Below, piece after piece: positions 7,092 through 62,325 of a stretch of 64,000 nt of DNA. Each line of letters opens with the position of its first letter. The first letter of the stretch is position 1. This DNA comes from a virus (lineage: Duplodnaviria; Caudoviricetes). Under the pieces are notes generated by a model, which saw only the letters and a program-made list of their open reading frames with translations, had not been told where the DNA came from and searched no databases. The stretch lies in the IMG/VR virus record IMGVR_UViG_3300020814_000535. One strand, written 5' to 3'. Both the position numbers and the translations under genes were made by a program.

Positions 7092-8939
7092 ATGTCGGAC
7101 GAGAATCCTTCACCGAATGAAAGTCCAATTCTAGAACCAGCTCCACCCCCTGTTGATTATCTTGAAAAGTTCACTGTCAATCTGACGCGCGAAGCCCGCT
7201 GGGGACATATTGAGCCTATGGTTGGGCGGGATCAGGAGGTCAACCGAGCTGTTCATGTCTTGTGTCGCAAGAAGAAGAACAATCCTCTGCTCATTGGAGA
7301 AGCAGGGGTTGGCAAAACGACGATTGCGCAGAACCTGGCGCTGCGGATCTCTCGCAATCAAGTTCCTTGCCAGCTGCAGGACCGAGAGGTTTACAGCATT
7401 GACATTGGAACTCTAACTGCAGGAACTCGGTATCGAGGTGACTTTGAGGAACGAGTTCAGGGCATCATCGAGAAGCTCAAGGCGAAGTGGCGAAAGCCGA
7501 TTGTCTTTATTGATGAAATTCACACGATGATCAAGGCAGGAAGTGCCAGCGACTCCCCGCTCGATATGGTTAGTCTCTTGAAGCCCGTCATTACTGAAGG
7601 GCTCATTTCATTCATGGGCTCGACTACGTATCAAGAATACAACAACCGTATTCTGAAAGACCCTGCTCTGGCACGACGGTTTCAAAAGATTGATATTCTC
7701 GAGCCTTCGGCTGATGAAACTCTGGAAATCCTCGATGGTTTGAAATGGACCTATGAGGGTTTTCACAATATCACCTACACCAAGGCTTCCCTTCGTTCGG
7801 CAGTGGAGTTGTCGGGACGCTTTCTGCGCGACAAGAAGTTCCCTGACAAGGCAATCGACGTGGTTGATGAGGCGGGCGTGCTGGTCAAGCTTGCGGGCCG
7901 CACGGAAGTGACCCCCAAAGACGTTGAGACGATCATCTCGCAGATGGCCCAGGTGCCGGTAAAGAACCTGAGCCGCAAGGAAAGCTCGAGAATTCACGAG
8001 CTAGAAAAGAACCTGAAGGAGCGAGTGTTTGGGCAGGATCACGCCATCGACCAGATTGTCTCATCAGTGAAGATGTCGCGGGCAGGACTCACGAATCCTG
8101 TGAAGCCAATTGCCTCTTTTCTTCTCACGGGACCCACGGGTGTAGGGAAAACCGAAGTTGCTCGCCAACTGGCTGAATTGCTGGGTTTGACCCTTATTCG
8201 CCTGGATATGAGTGAGTACACTGAAAAGCACACTGTTTCTCGTCTAACAGGAGCCCCTCCGGGATATGTCGGCCATGAGGACGGAGGGCAGCTGACCGAC
8301 CAAGTGCGGAATAATCCTTATTCGGTAGTCCTTTTGGATGAGATTGAGAAGGCGCATCCGGATATTTTTAACATCCTGCTCCAGATCATGGGCTATGGAA
8401 CGTTGACCGATAGTCGGGGCAAAAAGACCGACTTTAGAAATGTAATTCTGCTCATGACGAGCAACTTGGACTCTCAGGTCGTCGAGAAGCGTTCGTGCGG
8501 TTTTACGGGCGAAACTACATTCCAGGAAAATGATTTGGAGTATAAAAATATGTTTCGTCCAGAGTTCCGAAATCGGTTGGATGGACGAATTCATTTCAAC
8601 TCCTTGACCCCCGAAGTGATGGGCCGAATTGTAGATAAGTTTGTTCAAGAGCTGGAGAAGCAGCTGAGCGATCGACGAGTCAAGATCCAGTTGACGGAAT
8701 CCGCGAGGGAAGATTTGGCTCGGCGAGGCTATGACCGAGCTTTTGGGGCTAGGCCCTTGGCGCGCTTGATTCAGAAAGAACTCAAGATGCCACTCTCCGA
8801 GGAAATCCTCTTTGGTAAGTTGAAGCGGGGAGGGAAGGTGGTGGTTGATTGTCGGGGTGGCGAGTTGATGCTTTCGTATGACAAAGATATGAAAGAGATT
8901 CCAGAAGAGGTTCTGCAAGAAGATTCGGCTCTTAACTAG
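7092..8939 (+). CDS. clpA: ATP-dependent Clp protease ATP-binding subunit, ClpA-type, lacking the N-domain
   Basis: Two AAA+ modules (GEAGVGKT/FIDEIH; GPTGVGKT/LLDEIEKAH), GAPPGYVG pore loop, FGARPL; no ClpB M-domain. Confidence 0.93.
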   Translation: MSDENPSPNESPILEPAPPPVDYLEKFTVNLTREARWGHIEPMVGRDQEVNRAVHVLCRKKKNNPLLIGEAGVGKTTIAQNLALRISRNQVPCQLQDREVYSIDIGTLTAGTRYRGDFEERVQGIIEKLKAKWRKPIVFIDEIHTMIKAGSASDSPLDMVSLLKPVITEGLISFMGSTTYQEYNNRILKDPALARRFQKIDILEPSADETLEILDGLKWTYEGFHNITYTKASLRSAVELSGRFLRDKKFPDKAIDVVDEAGVLVKLAGRTEVTPKDVETIISQMAQVPVKNLSRKESSRIHELEKNLKERVFGQDHAIDQIVSSVKMSRAGLTNPVKPIASFLLTGPTGVGKTEVARQLAELLGLTLIRLDMSEYTEKHTVSRLTGAPPGYVGHEDGGQLTDQVRNNPYSVVLLDEIEKAHPDIFNILLQIMGYGTLTDSRGKKTDFRNVILLMTSNLDSQVVEKRSCGFTGETTFQENDLEYKNMFRPEFRNRLDGRIHFNSLTPEVMGRIVDKFVQELEKQLSDRRVKIQLTESAREDLARRGYDRAFGARPLARLIQKELKMPLSEEILFGKLKRGGKVVVDCRGGELMLSYDKDMKEIPEEVLQEDSALN

Positions 8940-14034: not shown

Positions 14035-14873
14035 GTCAATGAGAGATATTAGAATCAACAAAAAGAACTTCACAGTTCTTGTGGATTTGGACGACAAGGA
14101 ATACGAGCGAGCAGGAAAGTTTGCTTTTCCCACGCTCAAAGGAAAGGCGGCAAAGTTTGAGAAAGCTCTGGCGAGGTTTGGCTTTGAGTTTAACGAAATG
14201 GTAGATAACCGAGTAGAGTTTGTAGATAAGTTGGAGTTTTCCTTGGATTTTAAGCCAGAAATTTATGAGTATCTAGATAGTCTAGCTGAATGGAAGGTTT
14301 ACTTTGCTCTTGAGCATTTGGTAAATAAAAGATGGCGAGTTTGTATTGTGAATTCATCGAATTGTGGAGAACACAGAGATATAGTAGTGGCTTTCAAAGA
14401 TGCCTATAAACGATGGTTTGAAAGCGGCCGGGAAATAAAGCGCGGGGATCATTACGTTGCTTTGGAAGACGTTCTCGAAGACTTTGGATACCAACCATGA
14501 AGAAATTCCTTAAAGATCTCGGTTCGGTGCTTTGGAGAGTTGGTTTCTGGACAATGGCGCTCGGAACTTGGACTTGGACCTATTTGGTGTTGTCAGGTGA
14601 TATGAAGACTGACCAGCACTGGGTACCTTTGTTTACGAGTGTCTTGTGGGGTTTTCTTGTAGGAATGGAAGTGAACGAATGGATTGACGGAAAGTTGGTG
14701 AAAGTTTGGAGAAAGAATGCAGTTAACTATAAATTTCTTGCAGACACGTGGGAGAAGGACTATCGCGAGTTGGTTGCGTTGATTGAAAAGAGAGCAGCTG
14801 AATTTAAAGATTCTTAGTTTATTGGTAGTTCACGAAATTTTTGGAGTCTAACAACAAACGAGGAGAAACGAAC

Positions 14874-15275
14874 ATGTCGCTGAATCAGATGCAACTCATT
14901 GGTCACCTTGGCAAGGATCCCGAGCTTCGTCACACCCAGAAGGGGCAGGCCGTCTGCACCGTCTCGCTCGCCACGTCTTACAAGACGAAGGGCGGCGAGG
15001 AGCGCGTCACCTGGCATCGGGTGGTTGCGTGGGACGGGCACGCTGAGAATCTGGCGAAGTACACCCAGAAGGGCTCACAAGTCTGGGTGGAGGGTCGAAT
15101 GGATTATCGGCCCTACACGGATTCTCAGGGAATCAAGCGGGTCCAGGCGGAAGTGGTGGTGTCGCGGGTGGAGTTTCTGAGTGGCAAGCCTGGCAAGAAG
15201 ACGGACGAGGCTCAGACCGAGCTGCCCCTGAGTGAAGGGGATGTGCCGGTGGATGAGTCGGATATGCCATTTTGA
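14874..15275 (+). CDS. ssb: Single-stranded DNA-binding protein
   Basis: LIGHLGKDPE, TWHRVVAW, KGSQVWVEGR, acidic DMPF tail. Confidence 0.95.
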   Translation: MSLNQMQLIGHLGKDPELRHTQKGQAVCTVSLATSYKTKGGEERVTWHRVVAWDGHAENLAKYTQKGSQVWVEGRMDYRPYTDSQGIKRVQAEVVVSRVEFLSGKPGKKTDEAQTELPLSEGDVPVDESDMPF

Positions 15276-24062: not shown

Positions 24063-25241
24063 ATGTCTAATCTTCTAGTCGTGGGCCTTCAGTGGGGAGA
24101 TGAGGGAAAAGGAAAAGTCGTCGATCATATCGCTCGAGATGCTCAGATGGTGGTTCGGTTTTCCGGCGGGGGAAATGCCGGCCATACCATCGTCTCGGGT
24201 GGGAAAAAATTTGTCCTCCATCATCTGCCCAGTGGGGTGCTTTATCCGGGAGTGGTTAATGTGCTGGGCGAACGGATGGTGATCAATCCGATCAAGCTGG
24301 TCGAAGAGATTGAGGGGCTGAAAAAAGAGGGAATCTTCCCCAACATCAAGATCTCTTCGCGGGCACACGCCATCCTGCCTGAACATATCAAGGCTGAAGA
24401 GAAGAAGTGTTACCAAACCTTGGGAACGACCAAACAAGGCATTGGTCCCTGTCACGAAGCTAAGGTTGGTCGGCGGGGCAAACGCATGCGCGAGCTGGTC
24501 AACAATCTGGAGAAGCTCTACTACGGTCCCGAGTTCTTCGAGGCCATGCAATATTTGGCCCCGATGGTCGTGAATACATTCGACGAGATTACAGAATATG
24601 TCACCTCAAAGCAAAATATTATCTTTGAGGGTGCTCAAGGAATGCTACTCGACGTGGACTACGGGACTTATCCGTATGTTACCTCTTCTAGTATCAATGA
24701 CTTGGGAATTTATTTCCGCCATGTGAATAAGGTGATTGGCGTCTTCAAGCCTTATGTTACTCGCGTTGGGACGGGACCTTTTCCGACTGAATTGACCGAC
24801 GAAATAGGCCAAAAACTCCAATCCCAAGGCTGTGAGGTGGGCTCTACCACAGGCCGTGAGCGACGATGTGGATGGCTAGACTTGGGAGCTTTAAAAACGT
24901 CAAGTGATATCGCGGGCGTCAACGAACTGGCCATCACGAAGCTCGATGTTCTCAATGGTTTTGAGAAGATCAAAGTTTGCACGAGCTATCGTCACAAGAA
25001 AACAGGGATTCCTGTTTGTTATGATGATTTAGTAGATTTGAATGATGTCGAGCCGCAATACATCGAACTTCAGGGCTGGGAACAAGCTTTCAAATACGAT
25101 TACCCAACACCTGCGGCAAACGACTTTATCACCTACCTCGAGACTGAACTCGCCCTTCCCATTACTTTCATCTCTACCGGACCTGGTCGAGATCAAGTTG
25201 TTGACCTCTACACGTTAGAAGAAGAAGCACCTTCTGAATAA
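24063..25241 (+). CDS. purA: Adenylosuccinate synthetase
   Basis: QWGDEGKG, NAGHT, GTT..GIGP, FEGAQG.LLD.DYGTYPYVTSS, TTGR.RRCGW.D, TKLDVL. Confidence 0.95.
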   Translation: MSNLLVVGLQWGDEGKGKVVDHIARDAQMVVRFSGGGNAGHTIVSGGKKFVLHHLPSGVLYPGVVNVLGERMVINPIKLVEEIEGLKKEGIFPNIKISSRAHAILPEHIKAEEKKCYQTLGTTKQGIGPCHEAKVGRRGKRMRELVNNLEKLYYGPEFFEAMQYLAPMVVNTFDEITEYVTSKQNIIFEGAQGMLLDVDYGTYPYVTSSSINDLGIYFRHVNKVIGVFKPYVTRVGTGPFPTELTDEIGQKLQSQGCEVGSTTGRERRCGWLDLGALKTSSDIAGVNELAITKLDVLNGFEKIKVCTSYRHKKTGIPVCYDDLVDLNDVEPQYIELQGWEQAFKYDYPTPAANDFITYLETELALPITFISTGPGRDQVVDLYTLEEEAPSE

Positions 25242-33014: not shown

Positions 33015-33401
33015 ATGTCCAGTTTCAATCGCGTCATCATCATGGGGACTCTAGGCCAAGATCCAGACTTCAAGACCTTGAACAGCGGCACAAAGCTCTG
33101 CAATCTCAGCATTGCAACCAATGACGGCTTTGGTGAGAAGAAGAAGACCAACTGGCACAAGATCACGGTGTGGGGGAAACAAGCTGAGGCCTGCAGCACC
33201 TACCTCAAGAAGGGCGCCACGGTGATTGTTGAGGGCCGCCTTGAGTATGAGTCTTTCACTCCGAAGAGTGGCGGTTCTAGACAAACTGTTGCTAAGATTC
33301 AAGCGGATCGAGTACAGTTTATGTCTAAGGCCCCTGCAGCTGGTGGCGAAGCTTCTGATACGAATGAGTCCCAGGAGCCCAACGAAGACTTGCCGTTCTA
33401 A
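33015..33401 (+). CDS. ssb: Single-stranded DNA-binding protein (second copy)
   Basis: FNRVIIMGTLGQDP, NWHKITVWGKQAE, KG..V.VEGRL, DLPF. Confidence 0.95.
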   Translation: MSSFNRVIIMGTLGQDPDFKTLNSGTKLCNLSIATNDGFGEKKKTNWHKITVWGKQAEACSTYLKKGATVIVEGRLEYESFTPKSGGSRQTVAKIQADRVQFMSKAPAAGGEASDTNESQEPNEDLPF

Positions 33402-40732: not shown

Positions 40733-41740
40733 ATGCCTAACTTTCTAACTGGTCTTGAATTGGATGATGTTCTGCTGGAGCCCTGCTACTCCCCGTTTCT
40801 TAGTCGTTTCTCGGGGGAAATAGATCTGTCCACAGAACTTCTACCGGGTGTGAAGCTTCGTGTTCCTATTATCTCGGCCAATATGGATACAGTGACGGGA
40901 GTAGCTCTAGCCAATGTTATGTACGAAGGTGGAGGGCTAGGGATTATTCATCGGTTTGACGATCTGGTTATCCAGGCTAATAAACTCCAGCAGCAGAAGG
41001 GACCTGTTATTGTTTGTATTGGCACAGGGGATGAAGCCAAGAAACGGATGGATCATTTCGCGAAAGAGCTAGATAATTACGCTGGGATTCTAGTCGATAT
41101 TGCTCATGGTCATTCAGCCCCCATGGTTGAAATGATCAAGTGGTTGGCTAGAGAATACAACGAGGTCCCTGTCATTGCGGGCAATATTGGGACAACCTGG
41201 GCCGCGCGAGAGCTAATTGATTTGGGAGTTGATTGTCTAAAATGTGGAGTAGGTCCTGGATTTTCCTGTAGAACTCAAGCTAACACGGGTGCTGGTGTTC
41301 CTCAGCTCACTGCTATTCTCAACGTCCGAGAGGGAATAACTCGGGCATTTAATGAAGGTTTGAAACGCCGAGTGACTTTAATCGCTGATGGGGGAATTAA
41401 GTCTGGCGGGTGCATCACAAAGTGTCTTGCTGCTGGAGCTGATGCTGTAATGATCGGGAAGTTATTTGCCGGCACCAATGAATCTTGTGGAAAGAAGTAT
41501 CTCCAAGAAGGGAAAGCTCTTTATCGGGGGATGAGTAGTTTTGAAGCGATGACAGAATGGAAAGGGCAAGTAACTTCGGTTGAAGGAATTTGCACTTGCG
41601 TTCCCTTGCAGGGGCCAACAAAAGAAGTTCTGGAAAGACTAGTCGCGAACGTTCTATCGGGATTCAGTTATTTGGGCGCAAGTAATGTCAAAGAACTAAG
41701 AGAGAATGCTACATTTATCGTAAGGAGCAAGAGAGACTAA
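40733..41740 (+). CDS. GMP reductase / IMP dehydrogenase family enzyme without CBS domains (GMPR more likely)
   Basis: SANMDTV, GLGIIHR, VDIAHGH, GVGPGFSC, IADGGI, YRGMSS, VEG; no Arg-Tyr flap dyad visible. Confidence 0.88.
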   Translation: MPNFLTGLELDDVLLEPCYSPFLSRFSGEIDLSTELLPGVKLRVPIISANMDTVTGVALANVMYEGGGLGIIHRFDDLVIQANKLQQQKGPVIVCIGTGDEAKKRMDHFAKELDNYAGILVDIAHGHSAPMVEMIKWLAREYNEVPVIAGNIGTTWAARELIDLGVDCLKCGVGPGFSCRTQANTGAGVPQLTAILNVREGITRAFNEGLKRRVTLIADGGIKSGGCITKCLAAGADAVMIGKLFAGTNESCGKKYLQEGKALYRGMSSFEAMTEWKGQVTSVEGICTCVPLQGPTKEVLERLVANVLSGFSYLGASNVKELRENATFIVRSKRD

Positions 41741-45445: not shown

Positions 45446-46165
45446 ATGGCCAAGTTTCGTTTGCCTGTCTACATGCAAAAACGCACTCGTAAAAAGCAAC
45501 AACCCAAAACTCCCAAACCCGAAGAGCTTCTTTCTCAGCTGATTAGTTCGTTGGGTAGTCCATCTCCATCGAATGGAGACCTAGATGATTCCGATTTGAA
45601 CGACGATGGTTTTTCTTATCTGGGGGAACAGCTGGCCAAGAAGGGGATCTTCTTTCTCTCTGGCGAAGTGAACGAAAGTATTCAAAGTCTCATTTCGTTG
45701 TTTTTGCTGAAGCAAACAGACTTGGAGTGGAAAGACCCCCTGAGGCTTTATGTGAATTCTCCTGGTGGATATACGGCCAGTGGGTGGTCCCTGGTTGACT
45801 TAATGGGCTGGATTCGTGTCCCTATCATTACGGTCGGAATGGGGCTGGTCTGCTCGATGGGGACCATCATTCTTGCGGCGGGGACTCCAGGGAATCGTTA
45901 CATTATGCCCAATACAGAGATTATGATTCACCAGCCGTCGTCCAGTACGGGCTACGGAAACTACTCTCAGATCTTGGCGGCTACTGAGGGCATTCAACAG
46001 GAGTATGACCGACACGTTCGCTTCTGGATGCGAGTCAGCAGATACAAGACCAAGGGAGATGTCGAGAAGCATTTATTGAAGAAGCTCGATCACTTTCTGA
46101 CACCCAAAGAAGCTTTGAGCCACGGCATTGTTGATGGTATTCTTGAAAAGGACTCGAGTGTCTGA
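45446..46165 (+). CDS. clpP: ClpP protease proteolytic subunit
   Basis: YVNSPGG, CSMG (Ser), MIHQP (His), DHFL (Asp), G.VD. Confidence 0.93.
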   Translation: MAKFRLPVYMQKRTRKKQQPKTPKPEELLSQLISSLGSPSPSNGDLDDSDLNDDGFSYLGEQLAKKGIFFLSGEVNESIQSLISLFLLKQTDLEWKDPLRLYVNSPGGYTASGWSLVDLMGWIRVPIITVGMGLVCSMGTIILAAGTPGNRYIMPNTEIMIHQPSSSTGYGNYSQILAATEGIQQEYDRHVRFWMRVSRYKTKGDVEKHLLKKLDHFLTPKEALSHGIVDGILEKDSSV

Positions 46166-46841
46166 AGAGCTAGAAAAGATTAATATTACAGGGCTAGAGA
46201 AAGCCTCGTTCTCGTGTCCGTCGTGTGGGCATAAGATTACCCAGGATAAAGTCCAGGAATCAGCAGCTATTACTCCTGACACCTCGATGTTCTTGACCCT
46301 GGTTTGCCCGAAATGCGAGACTGAATGGATGCCTCCGACATGCGGCTGGATTCCAGAAAGACGAAATCCTCCTGAGCGGGAACGCCGACAGACTGTAGTG
46401 ACTGTCCCTGCGGCTCCACGAGGACGTCCACCTCGTCCCTCCGCACCCGCCCCAGCACCCCAAGCCTCCCGACCGAGGCCCGCCTCCATTCCCGATGTCG
46501 AGGAGTTGATGGCATCTGCATTGAGGGAGAATGATGACAGCGACGATTCTGAGTGATATCATTAATAGAATTACAGATATTCTCAATGAACATCCATTAG
46601 ATCCGGCAGAGATTACAGTCCTCTACGGGAAATTAGGATACGTTCTTGGCGCATCAATTGAAGGCTTTACCTCTCAAGGACCACCTCTTGAAATTCTTGA
46701 AAAGGCATATTACACTGCTCCGTCGTTAGGAGTCAGTCTAATGTTACAAGGCTTGTTAGTTGAGGGTTGGGCAGAAGATTGGAAGTTAAGGCCAAGTAGA
46801 AGCAAAATTTTGGAAGAGTATCAGAAAAAAGGAGAAGAAGA

Positions 46842-47366
46842 ATGAGACCCATTAAGTTTGTTGTTTACAAAAAGTCTTCGGCAATGCAGTTTGCTTTGGT
46901 GCCCGCGAATTTCGTCTGTTCAGAGAATCGGCGTCATCGCGTTAAGCAGGTCGAAGGTGAGGCCTGCACGGAACAAGGCTGTTCAGGCAAGGCTGTCTCT
47001 CAAGAGGGAGTCATCTTTGTTGATATTGCTCCAGCTACAGGACCCCAACAATACGACTGGTCTAAGAAGATTGTGTTTGCTCTCTCTCACGGCAATGTAG
47101 CAGAGTTGCTTCACGCCATGCGCTATGGTGTCGAAGCCAAGCTGGTCCATGATCCAGGAGCAAAGTCAGAGAAGGCGGGACAAGTTGTAAAGTCCTTCAA
47201 TATGACGTTCCCCAAGAAGCCTCAGGAAGGTTGCATGGTCCATGTGAACCAGTCCGACAAAGCCGGCGAAAAGAAGAATTACTCCATTGGTTTTTCAGGT
47301 AGCGAGATTATCGCCCTATCTACTCTTTTCCTCTCGGCTCTACCTAAGATGCTCGCGTGGGAATAA
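46842..47366 (+). CDS. Whirly-family ssDNA-binding protein
   Basis: VYK..SAM, EG.IF...AP.TG..QYDWSKK.VFALS, HDP, VVK, LP.ML.W, colinear with the plant Whirly domain. Confidence 0.8.
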   Translation: MRPIKFVVYKKSSAMQFALVPANFVCSENRRHRVKQVEGEACTEQGCSGKAVSQEGVIFVDIAPATGPQQYDWSKKIVFALSHGNVAELLHAMRYGVEAKLVHDPGAKSEKAGQVVKSFNMTFPKKPQEGCMVHVNQSDKAGEKKNYSIGFSGSEIIALSTLFLSALPKMLAWE

Positions 47367-47908
47367 TGAAGTTTCTAAATGACTTTCTGTGTTATCTGCA
47401 TGATATTCAGAACGGAGTCTGGGGCATTCATGATGTTTTAGTTCAGACCGCCGATGTTCTTCTAGCTATCAATAAAAAGATAAACTCTCAGGAGTCTAAT
47501 GTTCCTGTAGTTCTTCCTGAAGTAACCTGTCCAGAAATGATCTGTATGTTTATCGACAACCAAGCGGTTATTGTTTTGCAAGCACCAGGGACAAACCCTG
47601 TTTCTTATTCGCGAGCACTCCTAGCTGAAAATTCGGTTGATGAAGATTACATTGCTATGCTTGATTTGATTTACGATGTAGCCAATCGTTATGTATTGTT
47701 TGGCCCAGGAGAAAAGATTCTTCTTCACTTGCCTCAATCTTTTAGATTGATTCCCTACAGCTATCCTAGCGAAAGGAAATTGTCTAGGAAATTGCACAGC
47801 ATTCACAGCGATGAGAGATTTGGCAATACCACAATTTACTTCTCAGAAAGAACTCCTCTTTACGAGCCTTACTATCAATATATTCTTCAACAAGATAAGG
47901 TCTAACTA

Positions 47909-48262
47909 ATGAGTCTTACCGTCTCAGGTATCATTGGCATTTCTTCAGAGATCGAAGAAGTGACGGTAGGAGAGTCAACGTTTTTCAATTTTGAAGCCGC
48001 CTCTCCAGACCACCGAAAGCCTAACGTGAGGCATAAATACCGAGCAAGTATTTCGGTCTCAGCCAGGGATCTCGAGGAGGCGCGTGGGAAACTAAAGAAG
48101 GGCAAAGTGATTTTACTTCATGGCGGAAGTTGTATTTGGTCTGCCGAAGAAGTTGAGAAAGACGGCAAAAAGAATATTTACAATAGACTCCGTATGAGCT
48201 GGCGAGACATTACCGTCCTTGGATGGTTCAACAATCCAAGAAGTGAATCAAAGGAATCGTAA
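47909..48262 (+). CDS. OB-fold / SSB-like protein
   Basis: SSB-like strand pattern (VSG.I, F.F, LKKGKVI..G). Confidence 0.45.
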   Translation: MSLTVSGIIGISSEIEEVTVGESTFFNFEAASPDHRKPNVRHKYRASISVSARDLEEARGKLKKGKVILLHGGSCIWSAEEVEKDGKKNIYNRLRMSWRDITVLGWFNNPRSESKES

Positions 48263-49481: not shown

Positions 49482-52037
49482 ATGACTACGGGCGGACTTC
49501 AGGTTATCACCAAGATAACCGATCTTGTGAAATCTCACGCACCTTTAATCTATGTTGTCTCCGATGAGGAACAACGACTGACCGAGCTGTTGGTTGAACG
49601 AGTGGCCGAACCACTGAAACGAGCCGTCTATCGTTGGTCCTGTTTTCGTGGTTTACAGGGGTTAAAGTCTACGGTCCTGGAGGATAAGACGGATTCTCGT
49701 CAACTCCCGGATGCCTTGAAAGTTATCAATAATCTCAAGCTGCCCTCCAATTCTCGAGGCGGAATCTTTTTGATGTATGACGCCCATTGCCACCTGACTC
49801 CGATTGTGGCAAGGCAGTTGAGAGATATTTATTTTGAATTGATTCAGGGGCCAGATCCCAAGGTCAAGTCGAGTCCCAAGACCATTATTTTTATCAGTGG
49901 AATTTTGGCACACACCTCAGGCGGAATTCGAGACGGCCTAGAACCCAGCCTGAAGACCCATGTCGAGGTCGTGGATTTTCCTCTGCCGGCCCGTTCCGAG
50001 CTAGTAGAGAGTATTAACCTAATCATGGAGCCAGTTGTCGAAGCCGAAGAAGCGAGAAAGAAAGCGGGCAAGCCGGGCACCAAAAAGAGAGTGGACTACT
50101 CGCCCGATGAAATTCAAACTTTTAGTCGTTCTTTGCAAGGTCTTTCACTCATTGAGAGTGGCCGAGCTATTTCTGAGTGTTTTTATTCACATGGTCAGCT
50201 TGATGCTGAAGCTCTACTTTGGAAGAAGAGGCAGATTGTTAGAAGGGACGATATCCTAGAAGTTATTTCTGATTCTGTATCAATGAACAATGTGGGTGGA
50301 TTGGACGAAATCAAAAAGTTCATTGATATGTATGTAGATCAGTTTTCAGATGGAGCCGAGGGATTTGGTGTTGATCCGATCCGAGGAATCATTTTGGCCG
50401 GGGTGCCTGGATGTTTGGGCGGCGATACGATTATTCAATATAACAGAGGTTCGCGAGCCGGATACAGAAAGCTTAAGCTGAAGACATTCTATAAGAGATT
50501 TAATAAGTTCCATAAAAACTGGAGTGAAGATTTAGTTACTTATACTTACTCGTTTGATATGGAAGGCAAAGTTGTAAGGAATAGGATCCTTGGTGTTTTG
50601 GAGTCTGGTAAAAAACAAGTTTTGACTCTGTCGACAAAGAAAGGACGAAATCTTACTCTTACTCCAGATCACCCTGTCTGTATAACCTCTATTGAGGACG
50701 GAGTTGCGACACATAAGTTTGTGCCCGCCAACGAGTTAAAGGTCGGCCAACAAATTCTTTGCCAGGGGAGCATGAAACCTCGAAAGAATGGGGGCAAGAG
50801 GATCCCTGACCGTTCACTTCGCAAGTTTGTAGAAACTCTAAAGTATCATCCAATTGCTTCTGAGCACATTGTTAATGGATGTGTCTATCAACGTTGTACC
50901 TTTGCTAGGTTGGTTGTTGAAGCCCATATGAACTCAATGTCGCCAGAAGAATTGGTTAAGGCGCTTCAAACAAACGAAGAAAAAGCAAAGACGCTCAAAT
51001 ATCTGCCGAGTAATTATGACGTCCATCATCTCGACGAGAATCAATCAAATGATAAATTAGAAAATCTAATGATACTTGAGCACGATGAGCATTCGCGCCT
51101 GCATTCAAAGCTTTGTAATTTTAACGTCGATTATTTGGATGACGACTTTATTACAGAAATAAAAGATGCTGGCGTTCAAATGACCTACGATATCCAGATG
51201 GATTATCCACACAACAATTTTGTTGCCAATGGAATCGTCGTTCATAATTGCGGGAAATCGCTGCTTGCAAAAGCCATTGGTTCCTATTGGAAGTTGCCCG
51301 TGTTGAGATTGGATATCGGCCGAGTGATGGGCGGAATTGTCGGCTCGTCAGAAGCCAACATGCGAGCAGCCCTGAAGACTTTGGAAGCCGCATCTCCCGT
51401 TGTTTGCTGGCTGGACGAAATTGAGAAGGCTCTGAGTGGTACGGCCAGTTCGGGAATGTCGGACGGAGGAACTCTATCGCGAGTCTTTGGGACTCTGTTG
51501 ACCGCAATGGAAGAGCGGATGAAGGGAGTCGTTTTCGTTGCCACGGCAAATGACGTCTCAGCTCTGCCCCCAGAACTAATTCGCCGATTCAACGAAGTCT
51601 TCTTTGTCGATTTGCCAAAGGCTCAAGAACGGAAGACGATCTTTGAAATTCATTTGGCCAAGCGTGGAAGAGACCTGGAGAAGGTTGATGTAAACCTGGA
51701 TTATTTGGTCAGCCTTACCAAGGGTTTTACGGGTTCTGAGATTGAGAAGGCTGTCAAGGAAGGAATCGCGCGGGCCTGGAGAAACAAACTGAAGGACGTC
51801 AATACGGAGTCTATCGAGCTAGCAATTCGGTCGACCAAGCCGATTAGCGACATGATGAAAGATAAGATTCAGAAGCTTCAGGAGTGGGCCAAGAGCAGCG
51901 CTCGAAGTGCTTCCTCTTTCACCGATGAAGCCGTTGTAGTAGAGCCAGGAAAAATCAGCAATCTACCCAACCTGACAATGGCTGAAGAGGAAGATGAAGA
52001 TGAGGCCGAAACGGGGAAGAATCGAAATGCCAACTGA
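49482..52037 (+). CDS. Ycf46-like AAA+ ATPase with intein
   Basis: EE.R, VGGL, GVPG|CGKS, GIVGSSE, WLDEIEKA, ATAND...LPPEL.RRF. Confidence 0.9.
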   Translation: MTTGGLQVITKITDLVKSHAPLIYVVSDEEQRLTELLVERVAEPLKRAVYRWSCFRGLQGLKSTVLEDKTDSRQLPDALKVINNLKLPSNSRGGIFLMYDAHCHLTPIVARQLRDIYFELIQGPDPKVKSSPKTIIFISGILAHTSGGIRDGLEPSLKTHVEVVDFPLPARSELVESINLIMEPVVEAEEARKKAGKPGTKKRVDYSPDEIQTFSRSLQGLSLIESGRAISECFYSHGQLDAEALLWKKRQIVRRDDILEVISDSVSMNNVGGLDEIKKFIDMYVDQFSDGAEGFGVDPIRGIILAGVPGCLGGDTIIQYNRGSRAGYRKLKLKTFYKRFNKFHKNWSEDLVTYTYSFDMEGKVVRNRILGVLESGKKQVLTLSTKKGRNLTLTPDHPVCITSIEDGVATHKFVPANELKVGQQILCQGSMKPRKNGGKRIPDRSLRKFVETLKYHPIASEHIVNGCVYQRCTFARLVVEAHMNSMSPEELVKALQTNEEKAKTLKYLPSNYDVHHLDENQSNDKLENLMILEHDEHSRLHSKLCNFNVDYLDDDFITEIKDAGVQMTYDIQMDYPHNNFVANGIVVHNCGKSLLAKAIGSYWKLPVLRLDIGRVMGGIVGSSEANMRAALKTLEAASPVVCWLDEIEKALSGTASSGMSDGGTLSRVFGTLLTAMEERMKGVVFVATANDVSALPPELIRRFNEVFFVDLPKAQERKTIFEIHLAKRGRDLEKVDVNLDYLVSLTKGFTGSEIEKAVKEGIARAWRNKLKDVNTESIELAIRSTKPISDMMKDKIQKLQEWAKSSARSASSFTDEAVVVEPGKISNLPNLTMAEEEDEDEAETGKNRNAN
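50412..51248 (+). mobile_element. Intein (279 aa) with HNH endonuclease, in Walker A
   Basis: CLGGDT start, LTPDHP block B, VHHLDEN..ND..NL HNH, HNNFVANGIVVHN|C. Confidence 0.93.
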
Positions 52038-53814: not shown

Positions 53815-56800
53815 TTGCCTACAGAATCCTCGATCTCTGCAGTAGAAGCACTTCTATTCGATAACAACCTAAAGAAGACAAATATTACAGAGAAACTGGC
53901 CCAGAAAACGCTGGATTCTTTTAAAGATGATTTACTAGCCAGTTCGACGTTTCTCAAGAAATACGCTCTTCGGGATAAAGAAAACAATATTCACGAATGG
54001 ACTCTGGCGGAAGCTAAGCTTCGGTGGGCTACTGCGATTGCTGAAGTAGACAAGCGATTTTCAGACCCGCAGGATATCGATTATTTTCTAGAACTGTACG
54101 ACTACTTTCTTCCTGCAGGACGTCAGATGTTGGCTCTGGGAAACCCATACATCGAGAAAGCAACGTTAAATAATTGTTATACTTCTGCAGTAATGGAAGA
54201 TAGCTTGGAGGGCATTTTTGGTGTAGCGCTTGAGATTGCCAAGACGTTTAGTTATGCAGGTGGAGAGGGGATCAATTTAGCTCCTCTTCGTCCGAGAGAA
54301 GCGATTGTGTCGAATACTGCTGGGTCGAGTACGGGAAGTGTTTCTTTCGGCGAGATGTTCTCGTTTATTACGGGAATCATCGGGCAGTTTGGGAGACGTG
54401 GGGCTCTGATGTTGAGCCTGCCTGTTTGGCATCCAGATATTGAAGAGTTCATCACTGTTAAATCTTTAGACAAGAGCAGACTGAAGTTTGCCAACCTGTC
54501 TGTGATGATTGATGACGAATTTATGAGATGTGTCGAAAAGGACAGAGAATACACACTCTATTTCCAGACCAAGCACCAGGAGATCTGTCGCAAGGTCCGT
54601 GCCCGCGACATCTGGAATCTCATTATCAAGGCCGCCCATTCGTCGGCCGAGCCAGGAATTCTGTTCTGGGACCAAATCAAGAGAATGAGTTCGTCAGATA
54701 TTTATCCGGAGCTGTCTCTAACAGGGACCAATCCTTGTATTACAGGCGAAACTCTCGTCTATACTGCCGACGGAAGAGGAAATGTTCCAATCCGCCAATT
54801 AGCTGAAGAAGGAAAAGATGTTCCTGTTTTTTGTTTGGATAAAACAGATAAACCAACTGTCAGATATATGAGGAATCCCAGAATAACTGGTTTTAAACAA
54901 CCAGTTTACAAAGTAACTCTAGATGATGGCAGTGTTATTAGGACTACGTCTAATCATAAATTTTACCTTACGGAGGGCGGGGAGAAAACTGTAGATAAGT
55001 TGCAGATGGGGGACAGTTTGAAAATAGTTACTCGATTTGAATCAAGCATTAATGAAGTAGTTAAGGGTTATGAGGCAAAATCTCAGAATTATCTTTGGGT
55101 AAAGGTCGGTTGTCACACGGCTTATCCAGAACACAGACTTATTGCTGGCTTTCATTACAATGCCGATATGTCTCCCCAGGTTGGTCTAGTTGTCCATCAC
55201 CAAGACCATAATGGCAAAAACAATTTTCCCAGCAACTTGGTTGTGATGACCAAACAAGAACACGACAAAACTCACGTTTTAAAGATGTTTGGCGACAACA
55301 ATCCAATGCGACGTGCTCATGTGGAATGGGGCGCAAAGCAATGGGAATCTTATAGGCGAAAGCAGTCGGCTCGCTCGACTGGGAAGAGAAACAAGAATTG
55401 TAGTGGCGTTTCTAACGACGAATTAAAGCGACATGCTATTTTACTTACAAAGGAGGTTGGTCGCCGGTTCTCGACAAAAGAGTGGGCTATATACGCTAAC
55501 AGACATGGCTTGGTTGCTTATTTTAGCAAATGGAGAAACGATCACCTTGGAGGAGTAGTTGGATTGGCGAAGTGGGCGGCAATGGAATGCGGAATTGAAC
55601 ATTACGATTTAGAACCTCGCAAACAGAGAACCCTACAGACCCTTTCTTGCCAAGGTTATAATTGTATTGTCGAAAACAACGAAGTGTATGTGGTCAAAAA
55701 TTGCGAGATTTGTGGCTCGGAGTTTAAGGTGCAGCACGAGAGAAGAGAAGCGGGAATCTGTTTTTCTAGAGAGTGTCTACAGCAACATCTATCTAGGTCT
55801 CAAACCCCAGAATCTATAGAAAAAGCAAAAGCTGCAAGGTCTTCTACTCTAGTTAAACAAAAGAGCGACAATGCTATTAAGATGGTCAATGTATTTCTTA
55901 ATTTAAAGTTATCTTTAAAAAGAGCACCTACTTATAAAGAATTGAGCGTAGAGTGTAAGAAGCAAAATAAAAGACACAGGCTTGGAGTCCATAGCTATTT
56001 TAAAAACTATGCAGAGCTAAAAGAATTTGCCTCTACATATAACCACCGAGTAGTTTCAGTAGAATTTGATGGTTATGAGGATGTGTATAACGGTACAGTA
56101 GATGAGTTTCATAATTTCATGGTTGGAGGCTTTGAAGGAAAGGCTGCTTCTGGAAAGGCAAAATTTAGCTATTTAGTTAATCCTCAATGTGGAGAGCTAC
56201 CCTTGTCTCCACAGGAGTGTTGTTGTTTAGGATCGCTACTTCTAAACAAGTTTGTTTCGAAGCCTTTTTCTGCACTACAATCTTTTGACTACCAAAAGTT
56301 TACCCACATGGTAATAAGAGCAGTTAGACACTTGGACGACGTGGTTGAACTTGGGGCCTCGAAACATCCTCTGTTGGAACAATCTGAAAAAGCCCGCCTG
56401 GGACGTCGCATTGGACTTGGGGTTACGGGATTAGCTGATATGTTTGCCGCACTCGGCATGGAATATGATTGTCCTGACGCTCTAGTTGAAGAAGATCTTA
56501 TTTTTGAGATAAAGCGAAATTGGGAGACTTGTGCTTCTATTGACTTGGCTAAACAAAGAGGCTCATTTCCGCTTTTCAATAAAGACAAACATTACGAGCA
56601 GGGTTTTGCAGCAACGCTTCCTGATCTTATTAAAGAAGACGCAAAACTTCATGGCCAGCGCAATGTCGATATCGCCACAGTTGCCCCTAACGGATCCGTA
56701 GCCATTATTGCTCAAACAACCGGAGGCATTGAACCGATTTTTGCGCGGGAATACGAGCGAATTACAGAACTCGATGGAGTACGAAAGTCGTTCAAAGTGG

Positions 56801-57564
56801 TTCACCCTGGCATCCTGAGATACAAGGAAATTACAGGGAAGGACGCACCACCTGAACTATTCCCCACAGCTCATGAAATCAACTGGAGAGACCGAATCGA
56901 AGTGCAGTCTATTGCTCAGAAGTATACTGGGGCTTCTATTAGCAGCACCATTAATCTTCCAGAGAATACTTCAGTTGAGACCGTAGGAGAAATCTACCTC
57001 ACGGCCTGGAAGAGAGGACTCAAGGGAGTAACGGTCTATCGCGAAAATTCGCGGGAGGGAATTTTACTTGCGAAAACGGCCAAGAAAACTGAGGAGATCG
57101 ACACCGTCGTATATAAGCTTGTTGCCGAAGGTGGCGACAAGTTTTACATTCACATCTCCTACCGCGACCAAGACATCAAACAGCCCTACCAAATTTTTGT
57201 TACCAATTACAAGGCTAACGAAAATGATAGATTCAGAAAGCTCGCAGGGGACCTCGAAAGAGGATTGGATGTGCTGGATCGAGGAAAGCTCAACCAACAA
57301 CTTGAGAGAAGCAGAACATCTCTCGAACGAATCACAAGACTTGTATCTCTCGGGCTCAAAGAGGGACACCTTCAACTTTTGATTGAAATTCTAGAAAAAC
57401 ACTCTTTCGTTGGAACTCTCGCTTTTAACTTGCATTCTATCTTGAAAAAGAGTTACCTTGATAATAGTCAAATAGTTTGCACCAGTTGTGGTAGTTCAGA
57501 TCTAATTTTCACAGAAGGCTGTAGAACGTGTAAGTCTTGTGGGTATTCAAAATGCGGAGGATAA
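53815..57564 (+). CDS. nrdJ: Class II (B12-dependent) ribonucleotide reductase with intein
   Basis: PAGR, NCY, RRGALM, TNP|CGE, RRIGLG..GLADM, VAPNG, GIEP, ISSTIN, KGVTVYR, C-terminal EGC..C..CGYSKC. Confidence 0.92.
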   Translation: MPTESSISAVEALLFDNNLKKTNITEKLAQKTLDSFKDDLLASSTFLKKYALRDKENNIHEWTLAEAKLRWATAIAEVDKRFSDPQDIDYFLELYDYFLPAGRQMLALGNPYIEKATLNNCYTSAVMEDSLEGIFGVALEIAKTFSYAGGEGINLAPLRPREAIVSNTAGSSTGSVSFGEMFSFITGIIGQFGRRGALMLSLPVWHPDIEEFITVKSLDKSRLKFANLSVMIDDEFMRCVEKDREYTLYFQTKHQEICRKVRARDIWNLIIKAAHSSAEPGILFWDQIKRMSSSDIYPELSLTGTNPCITGETLVYTADGRGNVPIRQLAEEGKDVPVFCLDKTDKPTVRYMRNPRITGFKQPVYKVTLDDGSVIRTTSNHKFYLTEGGEKTVDKLQMGDSLKIVTRFESSINEVVKGYEAKSQNYLWVKVGCHTAYPEHRLIAGFHYNADMSPQVGLVVHHQDHNGKNNFPSNLVVMTKQEHDKTHVLKMFGDNNPMRRAHVEWGAKQWESYRRKQSARSTGKRNKNCSGVSNDELKRHAILLTKEVGRRFSTKEWAIYANRHGLVAYFSKWRNDHLGGVVGLAKWAAMECGIEHYDLEPRKQRTLQTLSCQGYNCIVENNEVYVVKNCEICGSEFKVQHERREAGICFSRECLQQHLSRSQTPESIEKAKAARSSTLVKQKSDNAIKMVNVFLNLKLSLKRAPTYKELSVECKKQNKRHRLGVHSYFKNYAELKEFASTYNHRVVSVEFDGYEDVYNGTVDEFHNFMVGGFEGKAASGKAKFSYLVNPQCGELPLSPQECCCLGSLLLNKFVSKPFSALQSFDYQKFTHMVIRAVRHLDDVVELGASKHPLLEQSEKARLGRRIGLGVTGLADMFAALGMEYDCPDALVEEDLIFEIKRNWETCASIDLAKQRGSFPLFNKDKHYEQGFAATLPDLIKEDAKLHGQRNVDIATVAPNGSVAIIAQTTGGIEPIFAREYERITELDGVRKSFKVVHPGILRYKEITGKDAPPELFPTAHEINWRDRIEVQSIAQKYTGASISSTINLPENTSVETVGEIYLTAWKRGLKGVTVYRENSREGILLAKTAKKTEEIDTVVYKLVAEGGDKFYIHISYRDQDIKQPYQIFVTNYKANENDRFRKLAGDLERGLDVLDRGKLNQQLERSRTSLERITRLVSLGLKEGHLQLLIEILEKHSFVGTLAFNLHSILKKSYLDNSQIVCTSCGSSDLIFTEGCRTCKSCGYSKCGG
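54736..56187 (+). mobile_element. Intein (484 aa) with HNH endonuclease, ending in Gln
   Basis: CITGET start, TTSNH block B, EHR/VHH..N..NN..SNL, VYNGTVDEFHNF block F, ...VNPQ|CGE. Confidence 0.92.
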
Positions 57565-58978: not shown

Positions 58979-59563
58979 TTGCTCAAGCCCATCCTGATTG
59001 GCCTGCACGGAAAAGCTAGGTCTGGAAAAGACTCTATTGCCACTGAGCTAATTAAGAACGGAAGTTGTTTCTTTAGTGTGGTTAGTTTTGTCGAGCCTCT
59101 GAAGCGGATTGTGATGGATCTGTTTTCTATGGATCGAGAACAGGTTTATGGTGACGCCAAAGACGAAGTTGACCCGCGTTACAAGAAGTCCCCTCGCCAG
59201 ATTCTTCAGGAAGTCGGGACAGCAATGAGGGTGATCTATAAAGACATTTGGGTTGACTACGCTCTCCGAAGAAGTCGCGAACTACAGATGTGTGGCTATT
59301 CTGTCATTATTACGGATCTGAGATACAAGAACGAATTCGAAGCAATTCGAAATGCCGATGGTTATATTTGGAAGGTTGTCCGTTTAGATGAAAATGGAAA
59401 TCCTGTGAATCTTATTGAAGCTAAGCTTCAGGCTCACGCATCAGAAGTTGACTTGGATGGATTAAGTGACGAAGAATTTGATGCTGTTCTGAGTGCAAAG
59501 TCTGGTCATCTGCCTCGGCTCTACGATCAGGCTCATCAAGCTCTAAGATTAATCTATGGATAA
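58979..59563 (+). CDS. Deoxynucleoside monophosphate kinase
   Basis: GLHGKARSGKD, PLK, PRQILQ.VGT, ITDLRY.NE, HASE. Confidence 0.92.
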   Translation: MLKPILIGLHGKARSGKDSIATELIKNGSCFFSVVSFVEPLKRIVMDLFSMDREQVYGDAKDEVDPRYKKSPRQILQEVGTAMRVIYKDIWVDYALRRSRELQMCGYSVIITDLRYKNEFEAIRNADGYIWKVVRLDENGNPVNLIEAKLQAHASEVDLDGLSDEEFDAVLSAKSGHLPRLYDQAHQALRLIYG

Positions 59564-60551
59564 CAACGAAGAGAAACTCGAAGTCGCCCTCTCTGCCATT
59601 GAGAAGCAGTTTGGCAAGGGTTCGGTTTGGTACAATGTAGATAGAAGTAAGCTTCCTGAAGTAGAGAAGATTTCTTCTGGGTCTATTCTGATTGACAAGG
59701 CTCTCGGTGGAGGTTTTCTGCCTGGAGGTTTTCCGAGAGGAAGGATTGTGGAGATTTATGGTGGGGAGTCTGTCGGGAAGACCACGTTGGCACTCCATCT
59801 TATTGCTGAGGCTCAGAAATTGGGATTTCACTGTGCCTTCGTTGACGCTGAGCACGCCCTGTATGTTGAATATGCCACGGCTCTGGGGGTCGATTTCTCA
59901 AAGCTCGTTCTTTCGCAGCCCAGCTCGGGCGAAGAGGCGCTGCAAATTTGCGATATGTTGATTCGCTCGGGGACGATGGGTGTTGTGGTTGTCGATTCGG
60001 TGGCCGCTCTGGTTGGTCAAGCTGAGCTAGAGGGTGATATTGGCGACAGTCACGTAGGCATCCAGGCTCGTCTGATGGGCCAGGCTATGCGCAAGTTAAA
60101 CGGTGTCGTGGCCAATACAAAGACTATTCTGACTTTTATTAACCAGACACGCATGAAGGTACAGACCTATGGACACGGCGATCCGACAACAACCTCGGGC
60201 GGAAATGCCCTGAAGTTCTATGCCACACAACGTGTTGAGATGAAGCGGATTGGATCGGTCAAATCAGGAGACGAGGTCATTGGAAATGAGATTCAGGTTA
60301 AGGTTGTAAAGAACAAGATTGCTCCTCCATTTAAGGTAGCTAATGTAGTGGTCACATTTGGTGTTGGTGTAAATAAATATCAGGAAGTAATCGGACTGGC
60401 TGTAGAGAAGGGGATTATAAACAAGGGAGGCGCGTGGTATAGTTACAAAGAGACGAGGATTCAAGGACAGAACAAGATGGAGGAAGCTTTGCGCGATAAT
60501 CCAGATCTCTTTAACCAGATTCGCCAGGAAGTTATCGTAGCTATCACTTAA
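59556..60551 (+). CDS. recA: RecA recombinase
   Basis: IEKQFGKG, GRIVEIYG.ES.GKTT, FVDAEHAL, VVDSVAAL, QARLM.QA.RKL, SGGNALKFYA, KNKIAPPF. Confidence 0.97.
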   Translation: MDNNEEKLEVALSAIEKQFGKGSVWYNVDRSKLPEVEKISSGSILIDKALGGGFLPGGFPRGRIVEIYGGESVGKTTLALHLIAEAQKLGFHCAFVDAEHALYVEYATALGVDFSKLVLSQPSSGEEALQICDMLIRSGTMGVVVVDSVAALVGQAELEGDIGDSHVGIQARLMGQAMRKLNGVVANTKTILTFINQTRMKVQTYGHGDPTTTSGGNALKFYATQRVEMKRIGSVKSGDEVIGNEIQVKVVKNKIAPPFKVANVVVTFGVGVNKYQEVIGLAVEKGIINKGGAWYSYKETRIQGQNKMEEALRDNPDLFNQIRQEVIVAIT

Positions 60552-60829: not shown

Positions 60830-61369
60830 ATGCCCGAAAAGACCTTCCTCCTGGCGGGGACGCCACAAAAATACATCTACCAAATTGACGATTATTCGTG
60901 CGGGCCAGTCGCTGTAGTCAATGCGATCAAGTGGGCGGGATTTAAAGCGGGATACGAAGATCTTTCATATTTTCGCAAAGAGTGTCGCACGACCGAGGAA
61001 ATGGGAACCTATCCAGATGACTTGTTCTGGACGTTGAAAAAACTTGAGCTTCAGGGTTTATTTAGGTTAGTCTATCGCATCGAAGATGCAGACCTAGAGG
61101 ATATAGACGAGTGTTGGATCCCCAACTCGGCTATGTTGATTACCACCTGCACTGCGCCAGCAGCCAAAGGTCCTGAGAGCTGTCACTATTCTCTGATTGT
61201 CGATAAACAAAAACGCAAGGCTACGATCTACTATTGGTTGGCGAACTACTATACCAAAAGAGGGCTGGCAAAAATGAGCCGAGGATTCTTGAAGCAGATT
61301 TTACGAAAAAGCAAAAAAGCCGTGAGCGCAGCCAACCTGAGAACCGACGTCATTGTGGTGACTAAGTGA
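60830..61369 (+). CDS. C39-like cysteine peptidase
   Basis: QIDDYSCGP, GT, HY. Confidence 0.7.
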   Translation: MPEKTFLLAGTPQKYIYQIDDYSCGPVAVVNAIKWAGFKAGYEDLSYFRKECRTTEEMGTYPDDLFWTLKKLELQGLFRLVYRIEDADLEDIDECWIPNSAMLITTCTAPAAKGPESCHYSLIVDKQKRKATIYYWLANYYTKRGLAKMSRGFLKQILRKSKKAVSAANLRTDVIVVTK

Positions 61370-62325
61370 CGGATTTTGCCCACCTTCACCTACATTCGGA
61401 ATACAGCTTGCTCGATGGCTGTATCCGCTTTAAAGAACTAGTCCCATACCTCAAAGAGATCGGCCTCACAGCCTGTGCCCTGACTGACCACGGGAATATG
61501 TGTGGTGCGGTCGAATTCTACAAAGCAATGAAGAAAGAGGGACTGAAGCCGCTCGTCGGTATAGAAGCATATTGTAGCGATAATCCAGACGACGTCGCGC
61601 AGGAAGATAAAATAAAAGATAATATGCACGTTGTTCTTCTGCCAAAAGACAACGTGGGCCTCAAGACTTTATTTAAACTCATCTCCGAAGCCAACCTTCA
61701 TAACTTCTATTACAAACCAAGGATTCAGTTCGAGAAGCTAGCTCAGCTGGCGGGGCATTGTGTAGTATCCACAGCCTGTCTAGCGGGTATATTATCTTCT
61801 GTTGTGAAATGGGATTCTGACCGCCGAATGTGGTCCGATGAGACAAATGCGGCGGAAGAGAAAATCTCCTTCCTCCAGGACCATTTTAAAGAAGATTTAT
61901 ATCTCGAATTGCAAGACTGGAACGACGGGACAGATATCCAACCTGCCTGGAACGAATTCTTGTTAATGGTGTCTGAAAAGAGAAATATCGAATGTGTGAT
62001 CACCACAGACGCCCACTATCTCAGAGAAACAGACTACGAACTTCATGAGCTGCTCATGGCCCTTCAATTGAAGCAGACCCTTGAGGAGTATAAACAGGGC
62101 ACCCAACTGAAATACGGACCTTACTTCTGGGTCAAGCCTCCAGAGGAAATGCTAAAGTCTGCCAAGAAGATTGGATGCGAATCAGCTTTCTGGAACACTG
62201 GAAAGATTGCTGATAAATGCAATGTAGAGCTAGAGCTGGGAACGTATTATCCGCCGGTTTTTCATCCAGAGAAAGCTAAAGATTATCAAGATTTCTTAAA
62301 GTGGAGAAAAGAAAGAGGATTATGA
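61366..62325 (+). CDS. dnaE: DNA polymerase III alpha subunit, stand-alone PHP domain
   Basis: HLHLHSEYSLLDG, ALTDHG, G.EAY, FYYKPR, TACL.G, YLELQ, TDAHY, NT..IA.KC. Confidence 0.92.
   Translation: MTDFAHLHLHSEYSLLDGCIRFKELVPYLKEIGLTACALTDHGNMCGAVEFYKAMKKEGLKPLVGIEAYCSDNPDDVAQEDKIKDNMHVVLLPKDNVGLKTLFKLISEANLHNFYYKPRIQFEKLAQLAGHCVVSTACLAGILSSVVKWDSDRRMWSDETNAAEEKISFLQDHFKEDLYLELQDWNDGTDIQPAWNEFLLMVSEKRNIECVITTDAHYLRETDYELHELLMALQLKQTLEEYKQGTQLKYGPYFWVKPPEEMLKSAKKIGCESAFWNTGKIADKCNVELELGTYYPPVFHPEKAKDYQDFLKWRKERGL

Follow-up and report, generated by a model that had tools for sequence, protein, structure and literature searches.

Reviews of the Whirly family (PMC9070903, PMC6963530) and a preprint of October 2026 (10.64898/2026.10.24.761589) still term these proteins plant-specific or plant-unique, and the locus considered here, a Whirly gene in a tailed phage, raises the question of what such a protein does in a virus and how it is related to its plant counterparts. 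The window, that is, the whole stretch of 64,000 nucleotides that was analysed, belongs to a complete virus record of 188,653 bp with direct terminal repeats. Plant Whirlies form tetramers, bind single-stranded DNA (ssDNA) independently of sequence and melt duplexes (PMC7549692). In addition, purified plant Whirlies promote strand exchange by organellar RecAs, which canonical single-stranded DNA-binding proteins (SSBs) do not (10.64898/2026.10.24.761589). From the analysis presented below, we consider it fairly probable that the phage Whirly serves recombination and RecA as an ssDNA-binding accessory, and that it is not the main SSB of the phage.

The open reading frame is intact, with 174 codons and an ATG start codon that overlaps the stop codon of the preceding gene, and its product is a member of the Whirly family (PF08536) in the broad sense. 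The Pfam match (E=4.2e-22), at 78.9 bits, exceeds the cut-off of 23 bits and covers model positions 22-134 of 136, and the matches of a phmmer search against the PDB were six plant Whirly sequences only, the best with E=4.6e-12. An AlphaFold model, built with an alignment of 60 relatives, has a pLDDT of 95, and its domain spans residues 1-174 with two repeats, each consisting of a four-strand sheet followed by a helix. By Foldseek, this model matches potato WHY2 (StWhy2, 3N1H) with a TM score of 0.78, and structure comparison (VIA) gives a Z score of 21.5 (rmsd 2.3 over 154 residues), ahead of trypanosome MRP (15.8) and Pur-alpha (7.2). The Whirly homology put forward in the original prediction is thus confirmed by both profile and fold, and the seven motifs quoted there all occur in sequence order, at residues 8, 26, 42, 55, 101, 113 and 167. 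All elements of the core signature (YK, YDW..K, HDP, G..K, E and the terminal W) are present. The protein keeps the residues that are near-invariant in eukaryotic as well as non-eukaryotic Whirlies (Y9, K10, A14, G56, Y71, D72, W73, K76, H103, D104, P105, G113, K117 and E155), and is off-consensus at few sites (Asn85, usually Asp or Glu; Gly150, usually Pro). Its first hairpin is short and of the plant type, as in about twenty other phage-type sequences.

The phage protein nevertheless lies outside the narrower higher-plant WHIRLY group. It has neither a transit peptide nor the disordered acidic/aromatic C-terminal tail described for plant Whirlies (PMC6963530), its chain ending at the Whirly tryptophan, and the KGKAAL motif is absent, the corresponding residues reading KKSSAM. 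Algal Whirlies often lack this motif (PMC9070903), and it is also missing from the Acetabularia Whirly in our alignment. Ser12 occupies the position of StWhy2 K67, which is required for 24-mers and for protection in planta (PMC3245945), and because of this replacement of the KGKAAL lysine, the plant-type 24-mer might not form. Nor is the product a canonical SSB, which combines a PF00436 OB-fold with an acidic tail, as PF00436 has no match at the Whirly locus. A PC4 or T5-type protein, which has a single repeat of ~70 residues and dimerizes, likewise differs from it, as there are two repeats per chain here.

The loop between strands 2 and 3 comprises 31 residues in the phage protein versus 12-18 in eukaryotic Whirlies, and hence the extra Cys/His loop noted in the original prediction is a real insertion. 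Its four potential ligands (C26, H32, C42 and C47) fall into two conserved pairs, which at the sequence level is a zinc-ribbon-type arrangement. A long loop is found at this site in 102 of the 178 phage-type sequences. Among these 102 relatives, which as related sequences are not independent, the loop is devoid of Cys in 52 and contains at least three in 45; just 5 fall in between with one or two, against about 59 expected from a random spread. Four or more Cys/His residues are present in every one of the 46 relatives that have at least two Cys, and the first Cys has the same offset in 43 of the 46. Most of them use CxxC, and the protein studied here and four others have Cx5H followed by a second Cys pair. 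The fixed position, the all-or-none presence and the swapping of Cys and His argue for a metal site, and the insert is a probable candidate for a zinc site, in a loop modelled with a pLDDT of about 85. The insert is optional among relatives and therefore presumably dispensable for the core function; it would be a surface module that could add to the DNA surface or bind a partner.

The Whirly gene sits in a conserved block of related tailed phages of 150-200 kb (Table 1). In the gene order kept in relatives, the gene for the 104-aa helical protein stands between ClpP and Whirly; an RNase HI-like gene comes next, then an OB-fold gene and an AAA ATPase, and finally ribonucleotide reductase and RecA. 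Where a homologue of the helical protein occurs, it is usually encoded directly upstream of Whirly. Searches of Pfam and PHROG gave no match for this protein and no clear fold match was found (best Z 5.8); coupled to Whirly in many related phages, it is a possible Whirly partner. The gene that follows Whirly here has no detectable homology to RNase H (hhalign probability only 1.3%). RNase H, by a weak match, is encoded directly after Whirly in loci L013 and L014, and related genes follow Whirly in 9 loci. The OB-fold product, for which there was no Pfam match, has a syntenic counterpart in L003, genes like it are present in L011 and L014, and its language-model features and predicted structure make it a third candidate ssDNA binder beside the two canonical SSBs. 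By eye, the ribonucleotide reductase (53815-57564) seems to have a large insert like that of the AAA ATPase.

Table 1. Features of the Whirly locus and of the surrounding phage genome, with a divergent homologue in phage ME3. Coordinates are those of the window unless a record is named.
Feature	Position	Strand	Evidence
Whirly-domain protein, 174 aa, pI about 9.2	46842..47366	+	Pfam, PDB phmmer, AlphaFold model
Shine-Dalgarno-like AGGAG	46830..46834	+	7 nt 5' of Whirly ATG, from sequence
Cys/His insert, C26-x5-H32 ... C42-x4-C47, strand 2-3 hairpin, probable zinc-binding loop	46917..46982	+	Cys counts of relatives
ClpP-family protease, upstream member of conserved block	45446..46165	+	PF00574 E=1.5e-35; synteny
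All-helical 104-aa protein, no known family; stop overlaps Whirly start	46531..46845	+	homologue in 13/23 Whirly-bearing viral loci
182-aa protein in the slot of the relatives' RNase HI-like gene	47357..47905	+	position only
Divergent 117-aa protein with SSB-like OB-fold, second gene downstream of Whirly	47909..48262	+	Atlas feature score 0.93, TM 0.75 to PF00436 clusters
AAA ATPase with intein/HNH insert, downstream member of conserved block	49482..52037	+	domain search; synteny
Phage RecA, proposed functional partner, 12 kb downstream of Whirly	59556..60551	+	PF00154 E=2.7e-105
Canonical SSB 1, acidic tail ending PF	14841..15275	+	PF00436 E=2.3e-32
Canonical SSB 2, acidic tail ending PF	33015..33401	+	PF00436 E=1.7e-31
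ME3_95, divergent Whirly homologue	KU935715 97413-97778 = L157:9414-9779	-	phage-trained profile E=1.2e-11

The phage genes found include those for RecA, a DnaE-type PHP domain, RNase HII, ClpP, a ClpB-like ATPase and two canonical SSBs. The DnaE-type polymerase is seemingly split, a PHP ORF (61366-62325) being followed after ~0.9 kb by a 1339-aa ORF from about 63200 (G000 63077-67096). The phage encodes both a ClpB-like ATPase (7092-8939) and a ClpP protease, and adenylosuccinate-synthetase-like and IMP-dehydrogenase-like genes were recognized by eye (24063-25241 and 40733-41740). Promoter and terminator scans gave results near chance. In L153 (9157-10489) and L154 (5396-6707), SpoVG is encoded three genes upstream of Whirly, and the Whirlies of these two loci are among those nearer the eukaryotic branch in a quick tree. 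Reverse-transcriptase genes lie less than 7 kb upstream of Whirly in the related phages L013 (4522-5379) and L014 (3234-4040), the former of which also carries an Acb5-family gene.

A phage branch of Whirly had been postulated from the window alone and is borne out by the relatives recovered: the closest are phage-type, with about 50% identity compared with about 29% to eukaryotes, and the protein falls within the phage radiation. A two-sequence profile search yielded 60 close relatives, and a profile of these 60 sequences yielded 987 clusters at 50% identity from all origins, 504 of them below 1e-10. Among the best 150 of the 987 clusters, five or six were identified as eukaryotic, most of the others being without a verified source. 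The contigs to which relatives could be traced are phage-like, several of them measuring 150-200 kb, and the ESM Atlas clusters named Whirly have 43-73% viral members. There was no tblastn match for three phage-type Whirly or Whirly-like queries among 50,697 GenBank phage records and none in a single-sequence scan of IMG/VR, and PHROG holds no Whirly family. The cultured Acinetobacter phage ME3 (KU935715) has a homologue, ME3_95, which is annotated as hypothetical, was first flagged by a fold search and has no Pfam match. It lies ~3.4 kb from a gene annotated as RecA, with exonuclease, RecQ and ligase genes nearby. In ME3_95 the HDP motif is missing, and the first two strands are apparently in another reading frame of the record; the gene would thus be either frameshifted or mis-sequenced.

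Bacterial relatives, according to the original prediction, are usually described as structural only, a view weakened by sequence-level homologues in Verrucomicrobiota and Micrarchaeota, which score above the PF08536 cut-off in the tested genomes and share 24-30% core identity with the phage protein. A GTDB scan gave 119 loci, the best 80 of which comprise 77 from Verrucomicrobiota and 3 from archaea. Matches were found in 20 of 251 sampled genomes of Verrucomicrobiota, 23 of 151 in one of its orders and 25 of 201 in Micrarchaeota, frequencies that may be undercounts owing to incomplete genomes and a loose first look. None of 14 model organisms, Synechococcus and Caulobacter included, had a match, these control genomes being the whole coverage of Cyanobacteria, Alphaproteobacteria and Chlamydiae. 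Ordinary bacterial homologues, whose abundance was to have removed the novelty of the locus, thus exist, but their distribution is patchy. The verrucomicrobial genes (L020-L096) are chromosomal, that of L034 is divergent from the adjoining priA, and a priA-like match is present in about half of the 77 loci. A TGTTC-N4-GAACA palindrome, which may be the LexA box of Verrucomicrobiota, stands upstream of Whirly in 60 of 72 of these loci versus 7 of 1675 control windows, with none near the phage Whirly gene. If the LexA reading is right, a prokaryotic Whirly branch is linked to DNA damage. Verrucomicrobiota also have another Whirly-like group (L111-L129), of about 190-200 aa and more divergent, of which the single member scanned gave no match to Pfam. 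Some of the archaeal homologues, from Micrarchaeota and their kin (L017-L019, L130-L149), have long Pro/Gln/Ser-rich N-terminal extensions.

On the model of the plant Whirlies, the phage protein would form a four-fold tetramer that would bind ssDNA without sequence preference and melt its secondary structure. Such a tetramer would coat the ssDNA that arises in recombination-dependent replication or repair, and the coating would block spurious annealing and aid strand exchange by the phage RecA. The role of RecA accessory is supported by the family fold, the conserved residues, the basic nature of the protein and the RecA in the genome, as well as by the position of ME3_95 near recombination genes and that of the verrucomicrobial homologues by priA with the palindrome. 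RecA is encoded in all five other Whirly-bearing IMG/VR genomes tested, and in L153 and L154 it is less than 10 kb from Whirly, but this co-occurrence is weak evidence because many of the phages are kin and have their gene order in common. The same role is weakened by the distance of 12 kb to RecA, the nearest neighbours being ClpP, the AAA ATPase and unknown proteins, by the fact that plant Whirlies also bind RNA and that relatives have an RNase H-like gene after Whirly, and by the loss of the K67 position. The original prediction envisaged work together with RecA, SSB and DnaE; the genes are present, 12-32 kb away, and cooperation among their products is something that we infer.

Several other functions have to be weighed against a RecA accessory. 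The protein could act mainly on RNA or RNA:DNA hybrids, as an RNA chaperone, an R-loop or primer-processing helper or a transcription cofactor, in the manner of MRP1/MRP2, Pur-alpha or plant WHY1 in its RNA roles. MRP1/2 as the next-best fold match, the RNase HI-like gene after Whirly in 9 related loci, SpoVG upstream in L153 and L154, and the links of plant Whirlies to RNA and R-loops (PMC9070903) are consistent with this idea, which we judge unlikely, although not negligible, as the sequence signature is that of ssDNA-binding Whirlies, identity to MRP is only 11%, the following gene of this phage lacks recognizable RNase H homology and the bacterial homologues adjoin priA. Plant Whirlies also compact nucleoids and assemble into 24-mers on long ssDNA (PMC9070903, PMC3245945), and a small, basic protein whose gene is not adjacent to recA might coat replicating phage DNA in abundance to compact or shield it, in a nucleoid-type or anti-nuclease role and with no specific RecA link. 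The serine in place of the 24-mer lysine, the lack of any anti-defence context around Whirly and the location in a conserved block, presumably less typical of counter-defence genes, make a coat distinctly unlikely.

Replacement of SSB as the main ssDNA-binding protein of the replisome finds a point in its favour in one Whirly-bearing phage, 91%-complete, that has no PF00436 match. We consider it very improbable for the present phage, since two SSBs with acidic tails are already present, beside a third OB-fold protein, and Whirly has no docking tail; moreover, a canonical SSB coexists with Whirly in three of the five other viral records tested. The off-consensus Asn85 and Gly150 and the short, plant-type first hairpin might be read as signs of a decaying, non-functional gene or of recent acquisition from a plant or alga. 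The intact ORF with its ribosome-binding site, the conserved synteny, the phage-type nearest relatives and the sharing of the short hairpin by other phage-type sequences make this the least credible explanation. An ssDNA-binding accessory to RecA is therefore the function that we prefer.

As to the origin of plant Whirly, an unrooted maximum-likelihood tree was built from 71 sequences and 142 columns, leaving out the long-branch viral sequences L107 and L109 and near-duplicates. The eukaryotic sequences form a clade (94/93), which includes the chrysophyte Chlorochromonas danica and takes in one metagenomic sequence called eukaryotic from its neighbour gene, and a branch with support of 98/96 separates the cellular prokaryotes from the phage and eukaryotic sequences together. 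The tree neighbours of the eukaryotes, with modest support (94/69), are L108, a viral sequence from IMG/VR, and two sequences of phage type from short, unverified contigs. A phage source of eukaryotic Whirly would be the best-fitting reading of this tree. AU tests did not reject a clade of eukaryotes and cellular prokaryotes (p=0.378) and did not formally reject one of eukaryotes and the present protein (p=0.098). The expectation that the locus would be informative on the origin of plant Whirly holds for the family, but less so for this copy, which is only one member, placed in an unresolved phage radiation and not as sister to the eukaryotes, and ranking 166 by mean identity to them. For the same reasons, the notion that its short first hairpin makes it specially plant-like was not supported. 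With the family widespread in large phages, it is possible, if on balance slightly doubtful, that plant and algal Whirly derives from a recombination module of tailed phages taken up by a green-algal ancestor, that Whirly-assisted strand exchange by RecA is older than plants, and that the protein described here is a zinc-finger variant of the ancestral module. A phage-type origin has likewise been proposed for the organellar primase-helicase. An organelle-proteome study sets the origin of Whirly in the green-lineage ancestor (PMC11135702). The Whirly of C. danica (EukProt P0164) comes from outside the green lineage and groups with green-algal sequences, which might reflect transfer or contamination.

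Phage Whirlies are already auto-named in UniProt and BFVD, and the present protein is one of many; in the literature, a search that mostly did not reach subscription papers found no paper on phage or prokaryotic PF08536 members. What is new is a phage Whirly branch with an optional insert that is a candidate zinc-type site. The plant-specific label is overturned by members from phages, bacteria and archaea whose sequence homology is clear. These members make testable both the source of plant Whirly and whether stimulation of RecA is the ancestral job of the family, and the small, tail-less phage Whirlies, whose genomes also encode a cognate RecA and SSBs, offer simple biochemical models.

Among known systems, MRP1/MRP2, Pur-alpha, human PC4 and the PC4 homologue of phage T5 share with the phage Whirly the four-strand-plus-helix unit and the nucleic-acid-binding class (PMC7549692). 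For MRP and Pur-alpha, this likeness is one of fold only, with 10-11% identity. PC4 and the T5 protein form dimers of chains with one repeat each, unlike the two-repeat phage chain, and the T5 protein provides a precedent for a PC4-like factor in recombination-dependent replication of a phage (PMC7549692). The Whirlies of Verrucomicrobiota and Micrarchaeota are much closer, as members of the same family, but they form their own branch and are chromosomal, often by priA in Verrucomicrobiota. Auto-annotated phage Whirlies, such as A0A6J5NR37 of an uncultured phage and the ESM Atlas clusters, belong to the same family and the same kind of host genome; they are database labels only, and A0A6J5NR37 is shorter (141 aa). 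With the plant and green-algal Whirlies (StWhy2 3N1H, PBF-2 p24 1L3A, AtWHY1-3 4KOO/4KOP/4KOQ), the phage protein shares homology of sequence and fold over the whole domain, including the YDW, HDP, G-x3-K and terminal P-x-x-L-x-W signatures, and it differs from the plant proteins in being phage-encoded, in having no transit peptide or acidic/aromatic tail, in reading KKSSAM for KGKAAL, and in its 31-residue Cys/His insert.
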